Source of the DNA: Oscillospiraceae bacterium
GTDB taxonomy: Bacteria > Bacillota > Clostridia > Oscillospirales > Oscillospiraceae
Assembly: GCA_015068495.1 (NCBI GenBank)
Contig: SVKL01000008.1
Location: forward strand, 13,892-77,891
DNA length: 64,000 bases
Direction of reading: 5' to 3'
Both the position numbers and the translations under genes were made by a program. The notes beneath the pieces are model-generated. The model had not been told where the DNA came from. It worked only from the letters and a program-made list of their open reading frames with translations, and did no database searches. Position 1 is the stretch's first letter. Each line of letters begins with the position of its first letter. Below, piece after piece: positions 25,644 to 31,902 of this stretch.

Positions 25644-26897
25644 TTACTTATATAGGGGGAATTTCTCGCAAATAGCAGCGACAGTTTCCTTTACTTCCTT
25701 GGCAGTGCCCTCAAAATCACGAGCAGTCATAGCAATACAGCGGGCAATTTGCTGCATTTCCGCTGCGCCGAGACCGCGGGTTGTGACGGCGGCAGTACCG
25801 ATACGCACACCGCTGGTGATGGTGGGCTTTTCCGGATCGCCGGGGATGGCGTTTTTGTTCAGTGTGATGTGATTTTGGTCGCAGCGGGACTGCATTTCCT
25901 TGCCGGTGATGTGCATAGGACGCAAGTCAGCCAGCATCAGATGGTTATCCGTACCGCCAGTGACCAAATCAAAGCCTTCTTCAAGCAGTGCGCCTGCGAG
26001 AACCTTAGCGTTGCTGACAATGTTATGCGCATATTCCTTAAATTCAGGAGACATTGCTTCCTTGAAGCAAACCGCCTTTGCAGCAATGATATGCTCCAGT
26101 GGACCGCCCTGTGTGCCGGGGAATACGGCGGAATTCAGCTTCTTTGCAAATTCCTCTTTTGCCAGAATCAAGCCGCCGCGGGGACCGCGCAGGGTCTTGT
26201 GGGTGGTTGTGGTGACGATGTCAGCGTAGGGGACGGGATTCATATGGGCGCCGCCGGCAACCAAGCCTGCAATATGCGCCATATCCACCATCAGTACTGC
26301 ACCAACCTCGTGGGCAATATCGGCAAAAACTTTGAAATCAATGGCTCTGGGGTAGGCAGATGCGCCGGCAATGATCAGCTTGGGCTGGTTCTTTTTTGCC
26401 ATATCCCGAATTTGGTCATAGTCAATCAAACCGGTTTCGTGGTTTACGTCGTAGGAAACAACGTTGTAATACTTGCCGGAGATGTTGGCGGGGCTGCCGT
26501 GAGACAAGTGACCGCCGTTGGCAAGACTCATACCCATTAAGGTATCGCCGGGGTTTAGCAGCGCAACCTCTACAGCCATATTGGCCTGTGCGCCGGAGTG
26601 GGGCTGTACGTTGGCAAACTCAGCGCCAAACAAATCCTTAGCACGTTGAATACACAGCGACTCCAGTTCGTCAACGTGCTGACAGCCGCCGTAGTACCGC
26701 TTGCCGGGCAAGCCTTCTGCATATTTGTTGGTCAAAACAGAACCCATAGCGGCAATTACAGCAGGGGAGGCAAAATTCTCAGAGGCAATCAGCTCCAAGC
26801 CATCCTGCTGACGGGTCAATTCCTGTTCCATTATTTTAGCAACTTCGTTGTCAAACTGGGAAACGAAGCCAATGGAGTCCAAAGTCTTTGATAGCAT
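25644..26897 (-). CDS. glyA: Serine hydroxymethyltransferase
   Basis: [41 protein letters not shown] (PLP Lys), FPGTQGGP. Confidence 0.98.
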
Positions 26898-26956: not shown

Positions 26957-26997
26957 ACACACGCAATATAATCCTGACAAGAAATTGTCGGGAATCA

Positions 26998-27083
26998 TAT
27001 CTCCGTCCATTTGCCTGAGAGATTCGGCTAACGCCTTGCACCTTCGGCACACAACTGAATGTGTTCTCCAGAGAGTCCTCCAC
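26998..27083 (-). ncRNA. Glycine riboswitch, single aptamer
   Basis: Minus strand GGACTCTCTGGAGA...GCCGAAGGTGCAA...AATCTCTCAGGCAAATGGACGGAGA carries the GGAGA, CCGAAG and CUCUCAGG core; sits in the glyA leader. Confidence 0.9.
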
Positions 27084-27140
27084 CTCCGGTTCCGGCCAGC
27101 GTATCCGAAGGATTCACAGGGTATTTTGTTTATAGACACA

Positions 27141-27168
27141 ATTATACAGGAAATTTCCTGTTTGTCAA
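27141..27168 (-). promoter_or_regulatory. sigma-A promoter of glyA with a palindromic spacer
   Basis: TTGACA-16-TATAAT; the spacer holds the perfect palindrome ACAGGAAATTTCCTGT (27146-27161). Confidence 0.75.
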
Positions 27169-27191
27169 CAGTAATATAATGGATGCATAAT

Positions 27192-28112
27192 TTATAGATT
27201 TTTCTGGCAGAATGTGTCCAATGCCTCGTCGGTAAGGGAAGGCAGCTGCGCCTTTTGCAAGGACCAGTATTCCGTGTGCTCGGTGTGTTCCCCAGGATTC
27301 AGCGTAACCAGTTCCCCAAGAGATTCCACCTCTAAAAACAGAGGGTTGGTGTAGGTTTCAAAGGCCATACCGCCGTCAGAATAATTGCCGTTGGGGTTGA
27401 CGTGGAAGCGTTTGATAAACAAATCTCCGTGATTGAAATAAAGGGCAAAGCCGTGTTGGCTGTTCATACCGATTTTGAAGTAATCGGTGTTGTCCTTATC
27501 CTGCCGCAATGCAAAATACCGATCCATCCAAGTAAGCCGTTTGTCGTGGATTTTTGCCTTGGGCCAAAGGGTGATATAGCGGTTTGGCTGGGTGTATGTG
27601 TCGGCTGTGGGCTGGGGCGCAATCAGAGTGCCACCGGCAGACAGGGGAGATACGCCCCAAGGCGCCAGCGTAACAGCGGTACTTCCGCAGTTGGTAACTC
27701 TGTGGGTCACAGATACTTGGCTCTCGCTGTCAACGGCAAGCTCAATCTGAAACTGATATCCGTTTTGTTTTTGCGCAGGCGGTGTGAAAATTGCGCCGTT
27801 TTCCGTAAGGGAATACGCTACCGGGTCATTGTCGGGATAATAGGTCTTGGGCATATTTTCCGGAGAAATCCACAGACGGTGACCGCCGTAGATGTACCAC
27901 GTGGCGCCACTGCCGTAAAGCGCATCCATTTCCGGGCTGCTTGCGGAGAACACACGGGCTTTGTCCTCAAACATAATGTTTTCGCCGCCTACAAAGGAGA
28001 AGCGAATGATACGGGGACCAAAGTCCAAGGTGACCAAAAGTGTTATTTTCTCGTCAGTAATTTCAAGGCAGTTGCCAAAGCCTTCATATTCCACAACGCG
28101 CTTATAAACCAT
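27192..28112 (-). CDS. Hypothetical protein, DUF4380-like (galactose mutarotase-like fold)
   Basis: GPRII, GGHRLW.SPE, YTN..FLEVESLG motifs; ATG 28112 after AAAGGAG. Confidence 0.65.
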   Translation of the reverse strand: MVYKRVVEYEGFGNCLEITDEKITLLVTLDFGPRIIRFSFVGGENIMFEDKARVFSASSPEMDALYGSGATWYIYGGHRLWISPENMPKTYYPDNDPVAYSLTENGAIFTPPAQKQNGYQFQIELAVDSESQVSVTHRVTNCGSTAVTLAPWGVSPLSAGGTLIAPQPTADTYTQPNRYITLWPKAKIHDKRLTWMDRYFALRQDKDNTDYFKIGMNSQHGFALYFNHGDLFIKRFHVNPNGNYSDGGMAFETYTNPLFLEVESLGELVTLNPGEHTEHTEYWSLQKAQLPSLTDEALDTFCQKNL

Positions 28113-28179
28113 AACAATGCTCCTTTTGTGTTTATATTTGCAGTATAGCACACGGCGCGGCAAAATTCAATGAATATGT

Positions 28180-28215
28180 AAAATCGACAAGGTTACACAG
28201 AACCTTGTCGATTTT
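28180..28215 (-). terminator. Terminator after tRNA-Ala
   Basis: Perfect 15-bp stem aaaatcgacaaggtt / aaccttgtcgatttt. Confidence 0.85.
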
Positions 28216-28291
28216 TGGTGGACTTGAGGAGATTCGAACTCCCGACCCCCACAATGCGAATGTGGTGCGCTCCCAACTGCGCTACAAGCCC
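28216..28291 (-). tRNA. tRNA-Ala (anticodon CGC), CCA encoded
   Basis: GGGCTTG...CAAGTCC-ACCA acceptor with G3:U70; anticodon stem CCACA-TTCGCAT-TGTGG; T loop TTCGAAT; 76 nt. Confidence 0.97.
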
Positions 28292-28306
28292 AAATAAATC
28301 ACTTGC

Positions 28307-28335
28307 ATTATAATTCCAAAAGAATGGTTTGTCAA
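28307..28335 (-). promoter_or_regulatory. Consensus sigma-A promoter of tRNA-Ala
   Basis: TTGACA-17-TATAAT on the minus strand. Confidence 0.85.
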
Positions 28336-28434
28336 TTGCTTTCCTTATTTTGATGGCCTGTCGCATTTCTGCTATTTCTTTTTTTGCTGAATTGTGATAT
28401 AGTGATGAAAAACGATAGAAAAGAGGTGCTGCCT

Positions 28435-30381
28435 GTGGATTTGCTTGAGGCCCGCGAAGAATACATCAGCGCAAGACGTTTGGCGCAAAAAGAAGTGAAA
28501 GAAATGCGCCTGCAGGGAAAGGATACAGAGCCTGCAGTGCTGGATGATATTTTAGGCGATGACTTTGCCAATACTGCGCAGGAGATCGGTGTGGTCAATA
28601 TCCCCATTGAGCGGATTGTCGGCACCAAGACGGCAGGCCGTATTTCTGCTTTTTCTGCCGGTTTTATGCCCCTGTTAGACCCGGAAACCGAGTTCGCACA
28701 AAAATGGATGCACCTTTGCGCAGACCATATGTCCGACGAGGGAATTCGCAATCCCATTGTCTGCTACGAATACTTAGGGGACTTCTATGTCCAAGAGGGC
28801 AATAAGCGGGTCAGCGTACTAAAGCACTTTGGCGCTTCACAAATTCCCGGAACAGTCTACCGCATATTGCCGCAGATGAGCGAGGAGCCCCACATTAGGG
28901 CGTATTACGAATTTTTGGACTTTTATAAAGCATCCGGTCTGTACGATGTCCGTTTCCGCCAGCCCGGCGATTATGAAAAGCTGATTTCTTACCTGGGCAA
29001 GGATATGGATCAGGTTTGGACAGAGCGGGAGCAGCGAACATTCCGGGCATATTTTCGCTATTTCAAGGAAGCCTTTCACGCTTTACGCGGTGATAAACTG
29101 GACATTCTTCCGGAGGAAGCGCTGCTATTGTGGCTCAAGGTTTACTCCTTCCGTGACTTGGGACAGCTGACCGCAGAGGAAATCAAGCAGGCACTCTTTG
29201 CCCTGTGGGATGATGTGGTGTCTGTTTCTCAGGAAAGTCCTGTGCAGGTGGAAACCGAAGCTGATGTGACGGGTAGAGAGAGCTTTTTGAATATGCTGCT
29301 GCCTACAACCCTGAAGGTTGCATTTGTTTACCAGCTGAATCCTGAAATCAGTACGTGGGCAAAGGGACACTGGGAAGGCGCAGAGTATATGCATAAGGTG
29401 CTTTCCGAAAGAGTGTCTATCCGGCATTATTTCCACGCAGACAGCCCCGAGGAGGCAGAGCAGCTGCTGGAACAGGCGGTGGAGGACGGCGCCAATGTGG
29501 TGTTTGCCACCACGCCAAAGCTGAGCCGTCCGACGCTGAAAATGGCGGTTAAGTACCCCCGGGTCCGGTTTTTGAACTGTTCCGTGGATGCGCCGTATTC
29601 CAGTGTCCGTACATACTACAGCCGGATTTACGAGGCAAAATTTATCACCGGTGCCATTGCCGGCGCAATGGCGAATAATGACCGCATCGGCTATATCGGG
29701 TCTTACCCGATTTTCGGCGTGCCTGCATCCGTCAATGCCTTTGCGCTGGGTGCGCAGCTGACCAATCCCCGGGCAAAAATTGCATTGCGCTGGTCTTGCT
29801 TGGGCGGCAATCCCGTTGAGGAATTCATCCAAAGCGGAATCAATGTGATTTCCAACCGGGATGTTCCCACAGCGGACAAAAAGTACTTGGAATTCGGCAC
29901 ATATGGCACATATATGGTAGAAGATGGGAAGCTGTACCCGTTAGGGTCTCCCTGCTGGCTGTGGGGGCACTTTTATGAAAATGTCATCCGCTCCATTCTC
30001 AACGGCAGCTGGGAAAAGGGAAGAAGCAACCGTCACGCGGTGAACTACTGGTGGGGAATGGACAGCGGCGTAATTGATGTCAAGCTGGCAGAGACCCTGC
30101 CCGAAGGACTTACCCAGCTGTGCAATATGCTCCGGGATGGTTTGCGGAACGGCACTGTGGATCCCTTCCGCAGAAGGCTGGTTGACCAGTTTGGCTGTGT
30201 TCGCAACACCGGCACACGCAGCCTGACCCCGGAAGAACTGCTGCATATGGATTGGCTGTGCGAAAATGTTGAGGGAAAAATTCCGCCCTTTGACCAAATT
30301 GCACCGTTTGCCCAAGATATGGTGAGAGAATTGGGCGTGTACCGTGATACCATTCCTATGGAAAAGGAGGGAGAGCTGTGA
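28435..30381 (+). CDS. ParB/Srx-like N-terminal domain fused to a BMP/PnrA-type binding domain, no signal peptide
   Basis: N-terminal IPIERIVGT..FMPL..PI..YEYLGDFYVQEGNKRVSV; C-terminal KVAFVY..WAKGH..YEAKFITGAIAGAM..IGYIG..NAFALGA..YWWGMDSGVID. GTG 28435 follows AAGAGGTG; ATG 28405 is the alternative. Confidence 0.8.
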   Translation: MDLLEAREEYISARRLAQKEVKEMRLQGKDTEPAVLDDILGDDFANTAQEIGVVNIPIERIVGTKTAGRISAFSAGFMPLLDPETEFAQKWMHLCADHMSDEGIRNPIVCYEYLGDFYVQEGNKRVSVLKHFGASQIPGTVYRILPQMSEEPHIRAYYEFLDFYKASGLYDVRFRQPGDYEKLISYLGKDMDQVWTEREQRTFRAYFRYFKEAFHALRGDKLDILPEEALLLWLKVYSFRDLGQLTAEEIKQALFALWDDVVSVSQESPVQVETEADVTGRESFLNMLLPTTLKVAFVYQLNPEISTWAKGHWEGAEYMHKVLSERVSIRHYFHADSPEEAEQLLEQAVEDGANVVFATTPKLSRPTLKMAVKYPRVRFLNCSVDAPYSSVRTYYSRIYEAKFITGAIAGAMANNDRIGYIGSYPIFGVPASVNAFALGAQLTNPRAKIALRWSCLGGNPVEEFIQSGINVISNRDVPTADKKYLEFGTYGTYMVEDGKLYPLGSPCWLWGHFYENVIRSILNGSWEKGRSNRHAVNYWWGMDSGVIDVKLAETLPEGLTQLCNMLRDGLRNGTVDPFRRRLVDQFGCVRNTGTRSLTPEELLHMDWLCENVEGKIPPFDQIAPFAQDMVRELGVYRDTIPMEKEGEL

Positions 30382-31028
30382 AAATCCTCGCGTTGTCCGA
30401 CGAAGTATGCCCGGCGCTATATGATTTTTACACACCGGGGAAATTAGACGGTTACGATTTGATTATCTCCTGCGGAGATCTGAAGCCCAGTTATCTCTCC
30501 TTTTTGGTTACGATGACCCGGGTGCCGCTTATGTATGTTCACGGAAACCACGACGTTCTCTATGCAACAAAACCCCCTGAGGGCTGCGACTGCATTGAAG
30601 ATAAGCTGGTGGTCTATAAGGGCTTGCGGATTTTAGGTTTAGGCGGAAGCCCCAGTTACAATGGGGGAGAGCACCAGTATTCGGAAGGTCAAATGCGTTG
30701 GCGCATTTTTAAGCTCCGGCGGAAAATCCTGCGCCACGGTGGTGTGGATGTGGTGGTATCTCATGCGCCCCTTGCAGGAGTGGGAGACGGGGATGACTAT
30801 GCCCACAGAGGCTTTCACGAATTTCTGCGTTTCGTGGACAAGTACCATCCTGCCTACTGGCTCCACGGGCATATGCACCTGAATTACGGCGTGGACAATA
30901 CCCGTGTTCGCACCTACAACGGCACAAAGGTAATCAATGCCTGCGAGCGTTATGTTTTGGAGATTCCGGACGCGGAAATTCCCGCCAAATCCAAAAAAGG
31001 CGATATCGATTACAGCCATTACAAATAA
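30378..31028 (+). CDS. Calcineurin-like metallophosphoesterase
   Basis: LSD, CGDL, HGNHD, SHAP, HGHMH motifs; GTGA overlap with the upstream gene. Confidence 0.9.
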   Translation: MKILALSDEVCPALYDFYTPGKLDGYDLIISCGDLKPSYLSFLVTMTRVPLMYVHGNHDVLYATKPPEGCDCIEDKLVVYKGLRILGLGGSPSYNGGEHQYSEGQMRWRIFKLRRKILRHGGVDVVVSHAPLAGVGDGDDYAHRGFHEFLRFVDKYHPAYWLHGHMHLNYGVDNTRVRTYNGTKVINACERYVLEIPDAEIPAKSKKGDIDYSHYK

Positions 31029-31029
31029 T

Positions 31030-31061
31030 AAAACCCAGAAGCCAATTGGCTTCTGGGTTTT
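31030..31061. terminator. Bidirectional terminator
   Basis: Perfect 32-bp palindrome aaaacccagaagccaattggcttctgggtttt. Confidence 0.85.
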
Positions 31062-31071
31062 GATTTATGTA

Positions 31072-31902
31072 TTAGATAATGTCGGGGATTTCGTCGTCGG
31101 CGTGCTCGTCCATCCACTTCTGACACTCTTGATAAGCGGGCAGCTCCAAGTCGCCCATAGTGTTGGTGTGGAGGATGATACCTTCAATTTCACCGCAGAG
31201 CATCTTCTCACGGCAGAATTCCAGCTGCTCGCGAACAGACTTCACAGTAGCCTGCTTGCCCTGACCGAAGTTCCACAGATAAACGCCCATCAGACGGCGC
31301 TTGCCGGCGGTCATACGCAGGAACTTATCCCACTTTTCGTAAACTTCGTGGTAGTCGTCCTCATTCCAGCACCACAGAGTGATGCCGTCCAGAGGCTCCA
31401 TGTACTTAACAGCAGCCTCTTCGGGAACCTCATCGGTGCAGATATCGTTGGTGTAGATAACCATCCAGTAGTCCAGAGGACGTACTTCATTGTTCTTCAA
31501 ACGGTCACGGATCATATGGAGCTGTTCAACAGGGATGTTGTTGAATGCGCCGTCACGACGGAAGAAGTCATCCAAAACAACACCGGTGATGTTGTCGAAA
31601 TCCTTAGCTTCGTCAATGTAGCGCTGAATCTTATCAATGTCGGAGGTAGCATCAAAGCACTCCCAAGCCACATCGGTCATTCTGCGGAAAGACAGATTGT
31701 ACTGACGGCGGTTTACATCCACATCCAGAGGAATCATAAAGACCTTCTTGATGTCGAAGTAGTGACAGAACTCGGCGGGTGTCATTCTGGACTTTACTTC
31801 ATTAATCTCAGCTTCCTCTTCGGGAACTCCCTTTTCCTTCCAAGTGAAGTTATAGCGGCCTTCGGGGTGACCCCACAGCCAGCAACGATCCTTTAATTTC
31901 AT
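31072..31902 (-). CDS. Hypothetical protein, possible glycoside-hydrolase-like TIM barrel
   Basis: 276-aa ORF with RBS GGAGG, alternating beta/alpha pattern and NITGVVLDDFF. The fold call is inference. Confidence 0.7.
   Translation of the reverse strand: MKLKDRCWLWGHPEGRYNFTWKEKGVPEEEAEINEVKSRMTPAEFCHYFDIKKVFMIPLDVDVNRRQYNLSFRRMTDVAWECFDATSDIDKIQRYIDEAKDFDNITGVVLDDFFRRDGAFNNIPVEQLHMIRDRLKNNEVRPLDYWMVIYTNDICTDEVPEEAAVKYMEPLDGITLWCWNEDDYHEVYEKWDKFLRMTAGKRRLMGVYLWNFGQGKQATVKSVREQLEFCREKMLCGEIEGIILHTNTMGDLELPAYQECQKWMDEHADDEIPDII

Follow-up and report, generated by a model that had tools for sequence, protein, structure and literature searches.

A predicted cytoplasmic ParB/Srx-BMP fusion protein encoded with a conserved metallophosphoesterase partner in Clostridia

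We describe a pair of genes in a stretch of 64,000 nucleotides from a Faecousia-like bacterium of the Oscillospiraceae (contig SVKL01000008.1, positions 13,892 to 77,891; the whole stretch is hereafter called the window). Gene A encodes a protein in which a ParB/Srx-fold core, predicted to bind nucleotides, is followed by an acidic helical domain and a complete BMP/PnrA-type domain, and gene B encodes a calcineurin-like metallophosphoesterase (MPE). Comparison of the pair across genomes suggests that the ParB/Srx core and the MPE belong together and that the BMP domain is one of several exchangeable inputs. The locus had previously been interpreted from its letters and open reading frames alone (the sequence-only reading) as encoding a protein of about 650 residues without export signal or transmembrane helix, coupled through GTGA to a calcineurin-like phosphoesterase and closed by a strong terminator, and each of these elements is borne out (Table 1). 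The open reading frame of gene A opens at TTG 28384; we set the start at GTG 28435 because more than 100 full-length homologues of 648-652 residues begin there and because GAGG lies 8 nt before it. The start of gene B overlaps the stop of gene A and is preceded at 8 nt by AAGGAGG (30364-30370), and its product matches PF00149 with E = 3.8e-7 (score 31.2 against a cut-off of 21.5). The terminator hairpin has 15 bp and a folding energy of -26.5 kcal/mol (z -8.4), with 0 of 200 shuffled sequences folding equally well. On the 5' side, neither riboswitch nor leader was found ahead of gene A when 27000-31500 was scanned with Rfam, and a search of the + strand found no convincing sigma-70 promoter.

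Table 1. Features of the gene pair, in window positions; residue numbers refer to the gene A product.
Feature	Residues	Position	Strand	Remark
Ribosome-binding site GAGG		28423..28426	+	8 nt 5' of the gene A GTG start; from sequence
Gene A, 648-aa ParB/Srx-helical-BMP fusion		28435..30381 (including stop)	+	From homologue lengths and starts
N-terminal helix, conserved (Y10, A13, G28)	1-39	28435..28551	+	
ParB/Srx-fold core, predicted nucleotide-binding	40-168	28552..28938	+	
Box II / P-motif G122-N123-K124-R125	122-125	28798..28809	+	Equivalent of ParB GERR, Srx GCHR
Acidic all-helical domain	169-268	28939..29238	+	
Acidic linker, low model confidence	269-292	29239..29310	+	
Complete BMP/PnrA-type domain (periplasmic-binding-protein type I)	293-620	29311..30294	+	
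C-terminal helix and tail	621-648	30295..30378	+	Conserved in close (Faecousia-like) relatives only
GTGA start/stop overlap		30378..30381	+	Gene A stop / gene B GTG; translational coupling
Gene B, 216-aa MPE		30378..31028	+	Own orthogroup
Bidirectional intrinsic terminator hairpin		31029..31062	.	Common to the gene pair and the convergent downstream gene

Pfam and NCBIfam gave no match to the N-terminal 300 residues of gene A. Structure and profile comparison nevertheless place this region in the ParB/Srx fold, as the sequence-only reading had supposed from a G-x-x-R motif. More specifically, an AlphaFold2 model of the region built on an alignment of 20 sequences (predicted local distance difference test 89.1, predicted template modelling (TM) score 0.83) retrieved Noc, ParB and KorB as the top Foldseek matches in the PDB (E = 3.5e-5, probability 1.0, about 230 columns), followed by sulfiredoxin (Srx; target TM-score 0.69, root-mean-square deviation (rmsd) 2.8 Å) and then by SbnI, SerK and PadC, all with probabilities of 0.97-1.0. 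A profile of close relatives (A2) produced only non-significant ParB and Srx matches in the PDB (E = 0.12 and 0.2), and a broader profile that includes distant relatives (A4) was needed for significant ones. With A4, all 15 matches at E ≤ 1 were ParB/Srx proteins, among them Srx 6ky4 (1.5e-4), Bacillus subtilis ParB (4.4e-4) and SbnI (1e-3). The Pfam model PF02195 misses the window protein and matches many of its relatives that carry a 4Fe-4S ferredoxin (Fd), RAM or universal-stress-protein (USP) domain (see below); the clade of the window protein and these relatives are joined by hhalign at 97.2% (E = 3.9e-11).

The ParB/Srx core is the most conserved part of gene A. Across 39 diverse BMP-type sequences, P57, G63, T64, R69, E86, K90, W91, E112 and E121 are invariant, and so are G122, N123, K124, R125, S127, K130, R143 and Y157. 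The segment FYVQEGNKRVSV (residues 117-128, exactly 28783-28818) contains Box II, whose G122 and R125 are invariant in BMP-, Fd-, RAM- and USP-type as well as short members of the family. E159, conserved at 90% or more in A2, corresponds in the alignment to the initial Glu in ParB Box III (ENLQRE). Given that the phosphate-binding Arg and the Box III Glu are kept, binding of a nucleoside triphosphate (NTP) with Mg by the core is likely. The position of the ParB catalytic Glu is occupied by Asn123 in at least 97% of the 39 BMP-type sequences and by Asn or His in the other types, and Box II of the wider clade of non-BMP relatives reads G-N-H-R. In M. xanthus ParB (MxParB) this residue (E93 of G92-E93-x-R95) has been proposed as the general base: without it, CTP is hardly hydrolysed any more though binding is not abolished, and its equivalent is missing from the non-hydrolysing PadC (bioRxiv 10.1101/2021.05.05.442810). 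Since the general-base Glu is replaced, hydrolysis of the ParB type is not expected. For the catalytic Gln of ParB (MxParB Q52) the alignment is unreliable in gene A, and the position of the Srx Cys is Asn. The core thus probably binds NTP without hydrolysing it by the ParB mechanism, and would be either a non-hydrolysing NTP-dependent switch or a phosphotransferase; which NTP a protein of this fold prefers is unpredictable from sequence or AlphaFold3 (PMC12704722). The helical domain that follows has a pI of 4.97 (family median 4.97, range 4.4-6.8) and is poorly conserved. Its topology aligns with the helices after the ParB N-domain and it includes a weak SANT/Myb-like stretch, WTExE; being acidic and poorly conserved, it is unlikely to be a helix-turn-helix (HTH) that binds DNA.

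The C-terminal half of gene A bears the only Pfam label of the protein, PF02608 (Bmp; E = 5.5e-16, 58.9 bits against a cut-off of 24.1), and the domain is full-length, as had been claimed. In the PDB its closest sequence matches are AtzT (6pi5, E = 1e-31, 25% identity) and a Brucella protein (3s99, E = 3e-29), aligned over residues 308-634 of a query numbered with 17 extra N-terminal residues relative to the 648-residue protein (P0001). Foldseek with the full-length model aligned the BMP domain over about 350 columns (E = 1e-16), with the nucleoside binders Lbp, PnrA and BmpD next; the lac repressor core was also among the fold matches. The predicted pocket was mapped by sequence alignment to AtzT only, whose purine-base pocket consists of Tyr45, Ser97, the backbone NH of Phe98, Glu165, Trp194, Asn218 and Asn220 (PMC6834077). 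Kept or conservatively replaced are Tyr45 (Trp308 in 38 of 39 sequences), Ser97 (Ser/Thr360) and Asn220 (Asp/Asn476). Thr139 of AtzT becomes Lys/Arg402 in 36 of the 39 sequences, a gain of a basic residue, Phe98 becomes Pro, Glu165 becomes Gly, Asp or Glu, and the Trp194 position is variable. These changes suggest that a purine derivative, perhaps an anionic one, may be bound in place of free guanine or adenine. Some fusion homologues, such as P0201 (885 residues) and P0213 (820 residues), extend beyond the BMP domain with a long, coiled-coil-like tail rich in Ala, Glu and Lys.

BMP domains of this kind would ordinarily be sought outside the membrane, and automatic annotation would probably name the fusion protein as part of a transporter because Pfam sees Bmp only. 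Gene A has neither signal peptide nor lipobox nor transmembrane helix: its N-terminus is hydrophilic, the maximum Kyte-Doolittle mean over 19 residues is 1.13, and the BMP domain begins only at residue 293, behind about 290 residues of cytoplasmic type. The sequence-only reading had also set the protein apart from ABC importers, and the wider search agrees with it. No PF02653 (BPD_transp_2) permease was found anywhere on the contig of the window, and neither a permease nor a BMP-type ATPase is conserved near the fusion gene across 118 loci. The genome encodes two canonical BMP binding proteins on other contigs, one with permeases 2-4 kb downstream (C23) and one with permeases about 19 kb away (C8). 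Judged by these sequence features, the product of gene A is predicted to be cytoplasmic and not a transporter component.

We then examined how strictly gene B accompanies gene A. In related species, a tblastn search with gene B recovered, at 80 of 80 loci, an orthologue that immediately follows gene A. Across the class, the fusion is present in 38 of 399 sampled Clostridia genomes, and among 38 such diverse loci the MPE is adjacent in 35, the MPE being 41-57% and the fusion protein 29-50% identical; the co-occurrence anticipated for homologous loci is thus found at close and distant range. Of the three loci lacking an adjacent MPE, L106 holds a second paralogue, L123 lies at a contig end and L121 has no MPE within 4 kb. 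The genome that holds L106 (G774) encodes two fusion paralogues, at L097 and L106, only one of which has an adjacent MPE. Layouts include co-directional overlapping genes, convergent tail-to-tail genes (e.g., L107-L120) and an upstream MPE (L125). The synteny of the window's flanks is absent even in close relatives, and the pair changes genomic position. Adjacency that is kept through inversions and relocations is strong evidence for a functional pair. Clustering of neighbours at 39 and then 118 loci revealed no third conserved gene, only lineage-specific synteny, such as DUF2461 (34 close loci), an MsmX-like ATPase (15), DapABF and PrmA. DUF2461 (PF09365, E = 1.5e-35) is encoded after the MPE at 34 of the 80 Faecousia-like loci (e.g., L032:7765-8412) and occurs neither at the window locus nor at the 38 distant ones. 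Some families retain the pair in the majority of their members (12 of 14 in family f165), and it is found in at least 413 species of the genome collection, in 976 protein clusters at 50% identity.

We also searched a phylum-wide sample of 401 genomes. There the MPE orthogroup is sharply bounded (E ≤ 1e-71, next match 1e-17) and occurs in 25 genomes, 23 of which also have a match to the N-domain; in the remaining two, the MPE is overlapped by a short ParBc_2-like gene (about 200 residues). The N-domain profile found the fusion in 3 genomes and distant relatives of about 320 residues in about 15 others (E about 1e-13). These relatives consist of a ParB/Srx core (weak PF02195, DUF4032 or DUF1015) and a C-terminal 4Fe-4S ferredoxin motif, and the MPE lies immediately upstream in 14 of 14 loci, often overlapping, with 40-45% identity to the window's MPE (E = 1e-42 to 1e-51). 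A homology search started from a ferredoxin-type relative showed members of the same clade with an Lrp/AsnC RAM domain (Pseudomonadota, Deltaproteobacteria) or with a USP domain, N-terminal in the alignment. In these types too the MPE is close by: it overlaps the ParB-RAM gene at L143 and is convergent with ParB-USP genes at L144 and L145, and a 560-residue protein from a Thermodesulfobacteriota metagenome-assembled genome (P0329, L146:2730-4412) holds MPE, ParB/Srx and RAM in a single chain. Across sensor types and phyla the MPE is 40-48% identical. Ferredoxin-type relatives of two families share a conserved arrangement in which the MPE is followed by ParB/Srx-ferredoxin and then by endonuclease III (Nth) (L139:2318-4608, L127, L129, L130, L134 and L141).

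BMP, 4Fe-4S, RAM and USP domains are classic sensors of small molecules or redox state. The conserved core of the system is, by this comparison, predicted to be ParB/Srx plus MPE, with BMP as an exchangeable input, because the MPE stays the same while BMP, 4Fe-4S, RAM, USP or no extra domain swap beside it; the pair also appears to be older than the BMP fusion. This bears on the earlier proposal of an intracellular nucleoside sensor. Its sensor part stands, given that 4Fe-4S, RAM and USP replace BMP beside the same MPE; "nucleoside" is too specific, because the nearest relatives of known structure are binders of free purine bases, whose pocket is only partly kept. At some loci the immediate neighbour of the MPE is not a ParB/Srx gene. 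An adenine deaminase gene is coupled directly upstream of it at L147:3001-5516 and L149:1071-3633 (genomes G001 and G365), an arrangement seen in 2 species of one genus of another Bacillota class, to which a wider search added none. Other neighbours are a NudC-type NUDIX gene (L154) and BcrAD/PurD (L148, L150). In genomes where the MPE stands beside other enzymes, short ParB-like matches are still present, unlinked.

The MPE itself is conserved in its catalytic motifs with one peculiarity. D8, G33-D34, G56-N57-H58, H129, H143, G145 and H163-G-H165-x-H167 are invariant in 54 partner MPEs. Motifs II-V are thus invariant in this set, and motif I keeps its Asp without the usual His: it reads D-x-E in 42 of the 54, D-x-V in the window (D-E-V) and 7 others, and never D-x-H. 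The sole solved structure matched by the MPE sequence is MPPED2 (3rl4, E = 1.2e-3). Conservation extends beyond the metal ligands to many other residues in all partner types, which argues for one common chemistry to which the variable domains serve as inputs.

The surroundings of the pair in the window are housekeeping in character. On the upstream side of gene A lies a tRNA-Ala(CGC) gene on the opposite strand, which together with its promoter spans 28216-28335. The promoter, at 28335-28307 and pointing away from gene A, matches the sigma-70 consensus perfectly (TTGACA, 17 nt, TATAAT; 12 of 12 consensus positions). Further out are genes for serine hydroxymethyltransferase, Tex and ribosomal protein S9. 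Directly 5' of the serine hydroxymethyltransferase gene (25644-26897, - strand) we found a single glycine riboswitch aptamer (26993-27081, - strand; RF00504, 55.6 bits, E = 1.1e-10), an element best known ahead of glycine-cleavage genes. Between riboswitch and tRNA, an open reading frame of 323 residues (27192-28163, - strand) has a sub-threshold match to DUF4380 (27.1 bits against a cut-off of 29.4).

As a mechanism we tentatively favour control of the MPE by its ParB/Srx subunit, which would be gated by purine and NTP. The two proteins would form a cytoplasmic enzyme unit, made of a ParB/Srx NTP-binding protein and a dedicated binuclear metallophosphoesterase, with the BMP domain as input. 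That domain would close on a purine-like ligand, whether a base, a nucleoside or possibly a phosphorylated purine, which we propose because of the invariant Trp stack and the conserved Lys/Arg. The ParB/Srx core would bind NTP-Mg via Box II (G122, R125) and Box III (E159) without ParB-type hydrolysis, and ligand and NTP state would jointly switch the subunit, which would dimerise or change its conformation in the manner of ParB and PadC. The switched subunit would then turn the bound MPE on or off, with a substrate that would be the same in all variants and is probably a nucleotide-derived phosphoester. Such a unit would couple phosphoesterase activity to the purine status of this organism; in the relatives the coupling would be to amino-acid, adenylate or redox status. 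A regulatory role for gene A is preferred because the MPE is the better conserved partner, because the MPE also occurs next to a different enzyme, adenine deaminase, and because the order input, switch, enzyme matches that of the fused chain. Stronger conservation of the MPE than of the fusion protein fits a catalytic effector with a faster-evolving regulator. That the input is purine-related is hinted at by the nearest structures, which bind adenine or guanine, and by the adenine deaminase coupling in one genus. Several points weigh against this mechanism. NTP binding, the ligand, complex formation and the MPE substrate are all things that we infer; of the AtzT pocket, several residues have been lost and some positions vary in the family, so that the ligand is perhaps no purine at all; the adenine deaminase coupling is limited to two species of one genus; and the invariant charged residues of the core, together with the G-N-H-R of the non-BMP types, would fit a kinase as well as a switch.

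A kinase is indeed what the main rival proposes. In this account, which is that of the sequence-only reading and is possible if on balance doubtful, the product of gene A would be a phosphotransferase like Srx, SerK or SbnI that, with its BMP domain liganded, uses an NTP to phosphorylate a small molecule or protein, and the MPE would remove the phosphate. In its favour, Srx, SbnI and SerK are among the fold and profile matches, many charged residues of the core are invariant, and the wider-clade G-N-H-R is like GCHR of Srx and GVHR of SbnI and unlike GERR of ParB; antagonistic enzymes are also often co-encoded or fused, for which P0329 may be compared. However, no acceptor can be identified and the loci share no third gene, for SerK and SbnI the catalytic residues are unaligned because SerK missed E ≤ 1 in the profile search, and a bare kinase and phosphatase acting on one substrate would run a futile cycle unless oppositely regulated. 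The data appear to fit the regulatory-subunit model at least as well as such a writer and eraser. A further alternative is a sequential salvage or catabolic pathway. Gene A would then encode a novel kinase for purines or nucleosides, or some NTP-dependent enzyme, with the BMP domain as its substrate site, and the MPE would be a nucleotidase or phosphodiesterase acting before or after that enzyme in purine salvage. The BMP domain finds its nearest matches in proteins that bind adenine or guanine; adenine deaminase is coupled to the MPE in two genomes, and NudC or PurD lies beside it in others; and the closest solved relative of the MPE, MPPED2, is a nucleotide-binding phosphodiesterase. We nonetheless regard this as quite improbable: the MPE also pairs with 4Fe-4S, RAM, USP or no extra domain, so that the extra domain cannot define a common substrate, and no conserved purine genes flank the 118 loci.

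The roughly 230 Foldseek columns shared with Noc, ParB and KorB take in the helices after the N-domain, and HTH plus type-I binding protein is a layout resembling LacI/PurR; from this, gene A could encode a CTP-dependent protein of the ParB kind, a DNA clamp or transcription factor like KorB and Noc, with a LacI/PurR-like ligand-binding domain in place of the dimerisation domain. Low TM-scores (0.23-0.35, rmsd about 18 Å), a poorly conserved helical domain with a pI of 4.97, the lack of a ParA partner nearby, two canonical ParB genes elsewhere in the genome and an MPE left unexplained make it very unlikely, and we rejected DNA binding of the ParB kind on account of the acidic helical domain. 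A role in anti-phage defence or another conflict system earns similarly little credence. The MPE matches the PADLOC candidate PDC-S10 (E = 4e-15), ParB/Srx domains are common in conflict systems and the pair changes genomic position, but the fusion protein has no PADLOC match, PDC-S10 is a single-gene candidate only, the flanks are housekeeping (serine hydroxymethyltransferase, Tex, tRNA-Ala, S9, DapABF, PrmA), and the pair is kept in 12 of the 14 members of f165. That gene A encodes an ordinary ABC-importer binding protein with an odd N-terminal extension, as its sole Pfam label would have it, is scarcely credible for a protein that lacks signal peptide, lipobox and transmembrane helix, places about 290 cytoplasmic-type residues ahead of its BMP domain, and shows no linked permease or ATPase, either across 118 loci or along the contig that holds the window.

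Speculatively, and as a rather unlikely proposition, ParB/Srx plus MPE could be an unrecognised, widespread signalling output module with a logic like that of GGDEF/EAL or kinase/phosphatase pairs. A phosphorylated or nucleotide-derived signal would be made and broken, or its breakdown gated, under interchangeable sensors, where BMP would report purines, RAM amino acids, USP adenylates and 4Fe-4S redox state. Whatever the output, the Bmp label hides a large, unstudied branch of the ParB-CTPase/Srx fold, a fold that is now being actively studied as a new class of NTP switch, and gut anaerobes commonly carry the pair. The strict MPE partnership, the natural fusion and the swapping of sensors make this a concrete, testable system, which could show how a ParB-type NTP module couples to an enzyme instead of DNA and may reveal how gut anaerobes link phosphoesterase activity to purine status.

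Set against known systems, each part of the pair has relatives from which it departs. The BMP domain resembles the purine-base-binding periplasmic proteins AtzT (6pi5) and Brucella 3s99 over its full length, in the S-R-x-Y-E and W-G-x-F-Y motifs and in the aromatic stack; unlike them, gene A is predicted to be cytoplasmic, without lipobox or transporter. In the LacI/PurR family and AmiC, cytoplasmic type-I binding-protein domains sense small molecules and are attached to or control an output module. The output here differs, being ParB/Srx plus MPE and not an HTH or antiterminator. Like MPPED2 and class III cyclic-nucleotide phosphodiesterase-like enzymes, the MPE has motifs II-V intact; it is very distant from MPPED2, has a motif I without the His ligand (D-x-E/V) and carries the extra invariant His143 and His163. 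The compact N-domain superposes on Srx, SerK and SbnI at 2.8-3.5 Å, and Srx 6ky4 and SbnI are among its best profile matches, yet it has no Cys at the Srx position, a Lys for His in the BMP type and unrelated C-terminal domains. With ParB/Spo0J, Noc, KorB and PadC it shares the fold, the invariant G-x-x-R of Box II and the conserved Box III Glu. It departs from canonical ParB in lacking the general-base Glu (G-N-K-R), a basic HTH, a C-terminal dimerisation domain and ParA.

Fusion of the fold to a lineage-specific domain is also the general theme of the 2025 survey of the ParB-CTPase fold (Kaljevic et al. 2025, PMC12704722). That survey relied on PF02195, and its text and accessible supplements make no mention of Bmp, Metallophos, ferredoxin, PF13224 or PF06245; the present branch escaped it because PF02195 misses the fusion protein. 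Our literature search found no paper on a ParB/Srx-BMP protein or a ParB/Srx-MPE pair, and an obligate MPE partner is unreported for any ParB-fold protein in the literature searched. Compared with these systems, what is new here is a ParB-fold fusion that combines a previously unreported, obligate enzyme partner with exchangeable sensors.

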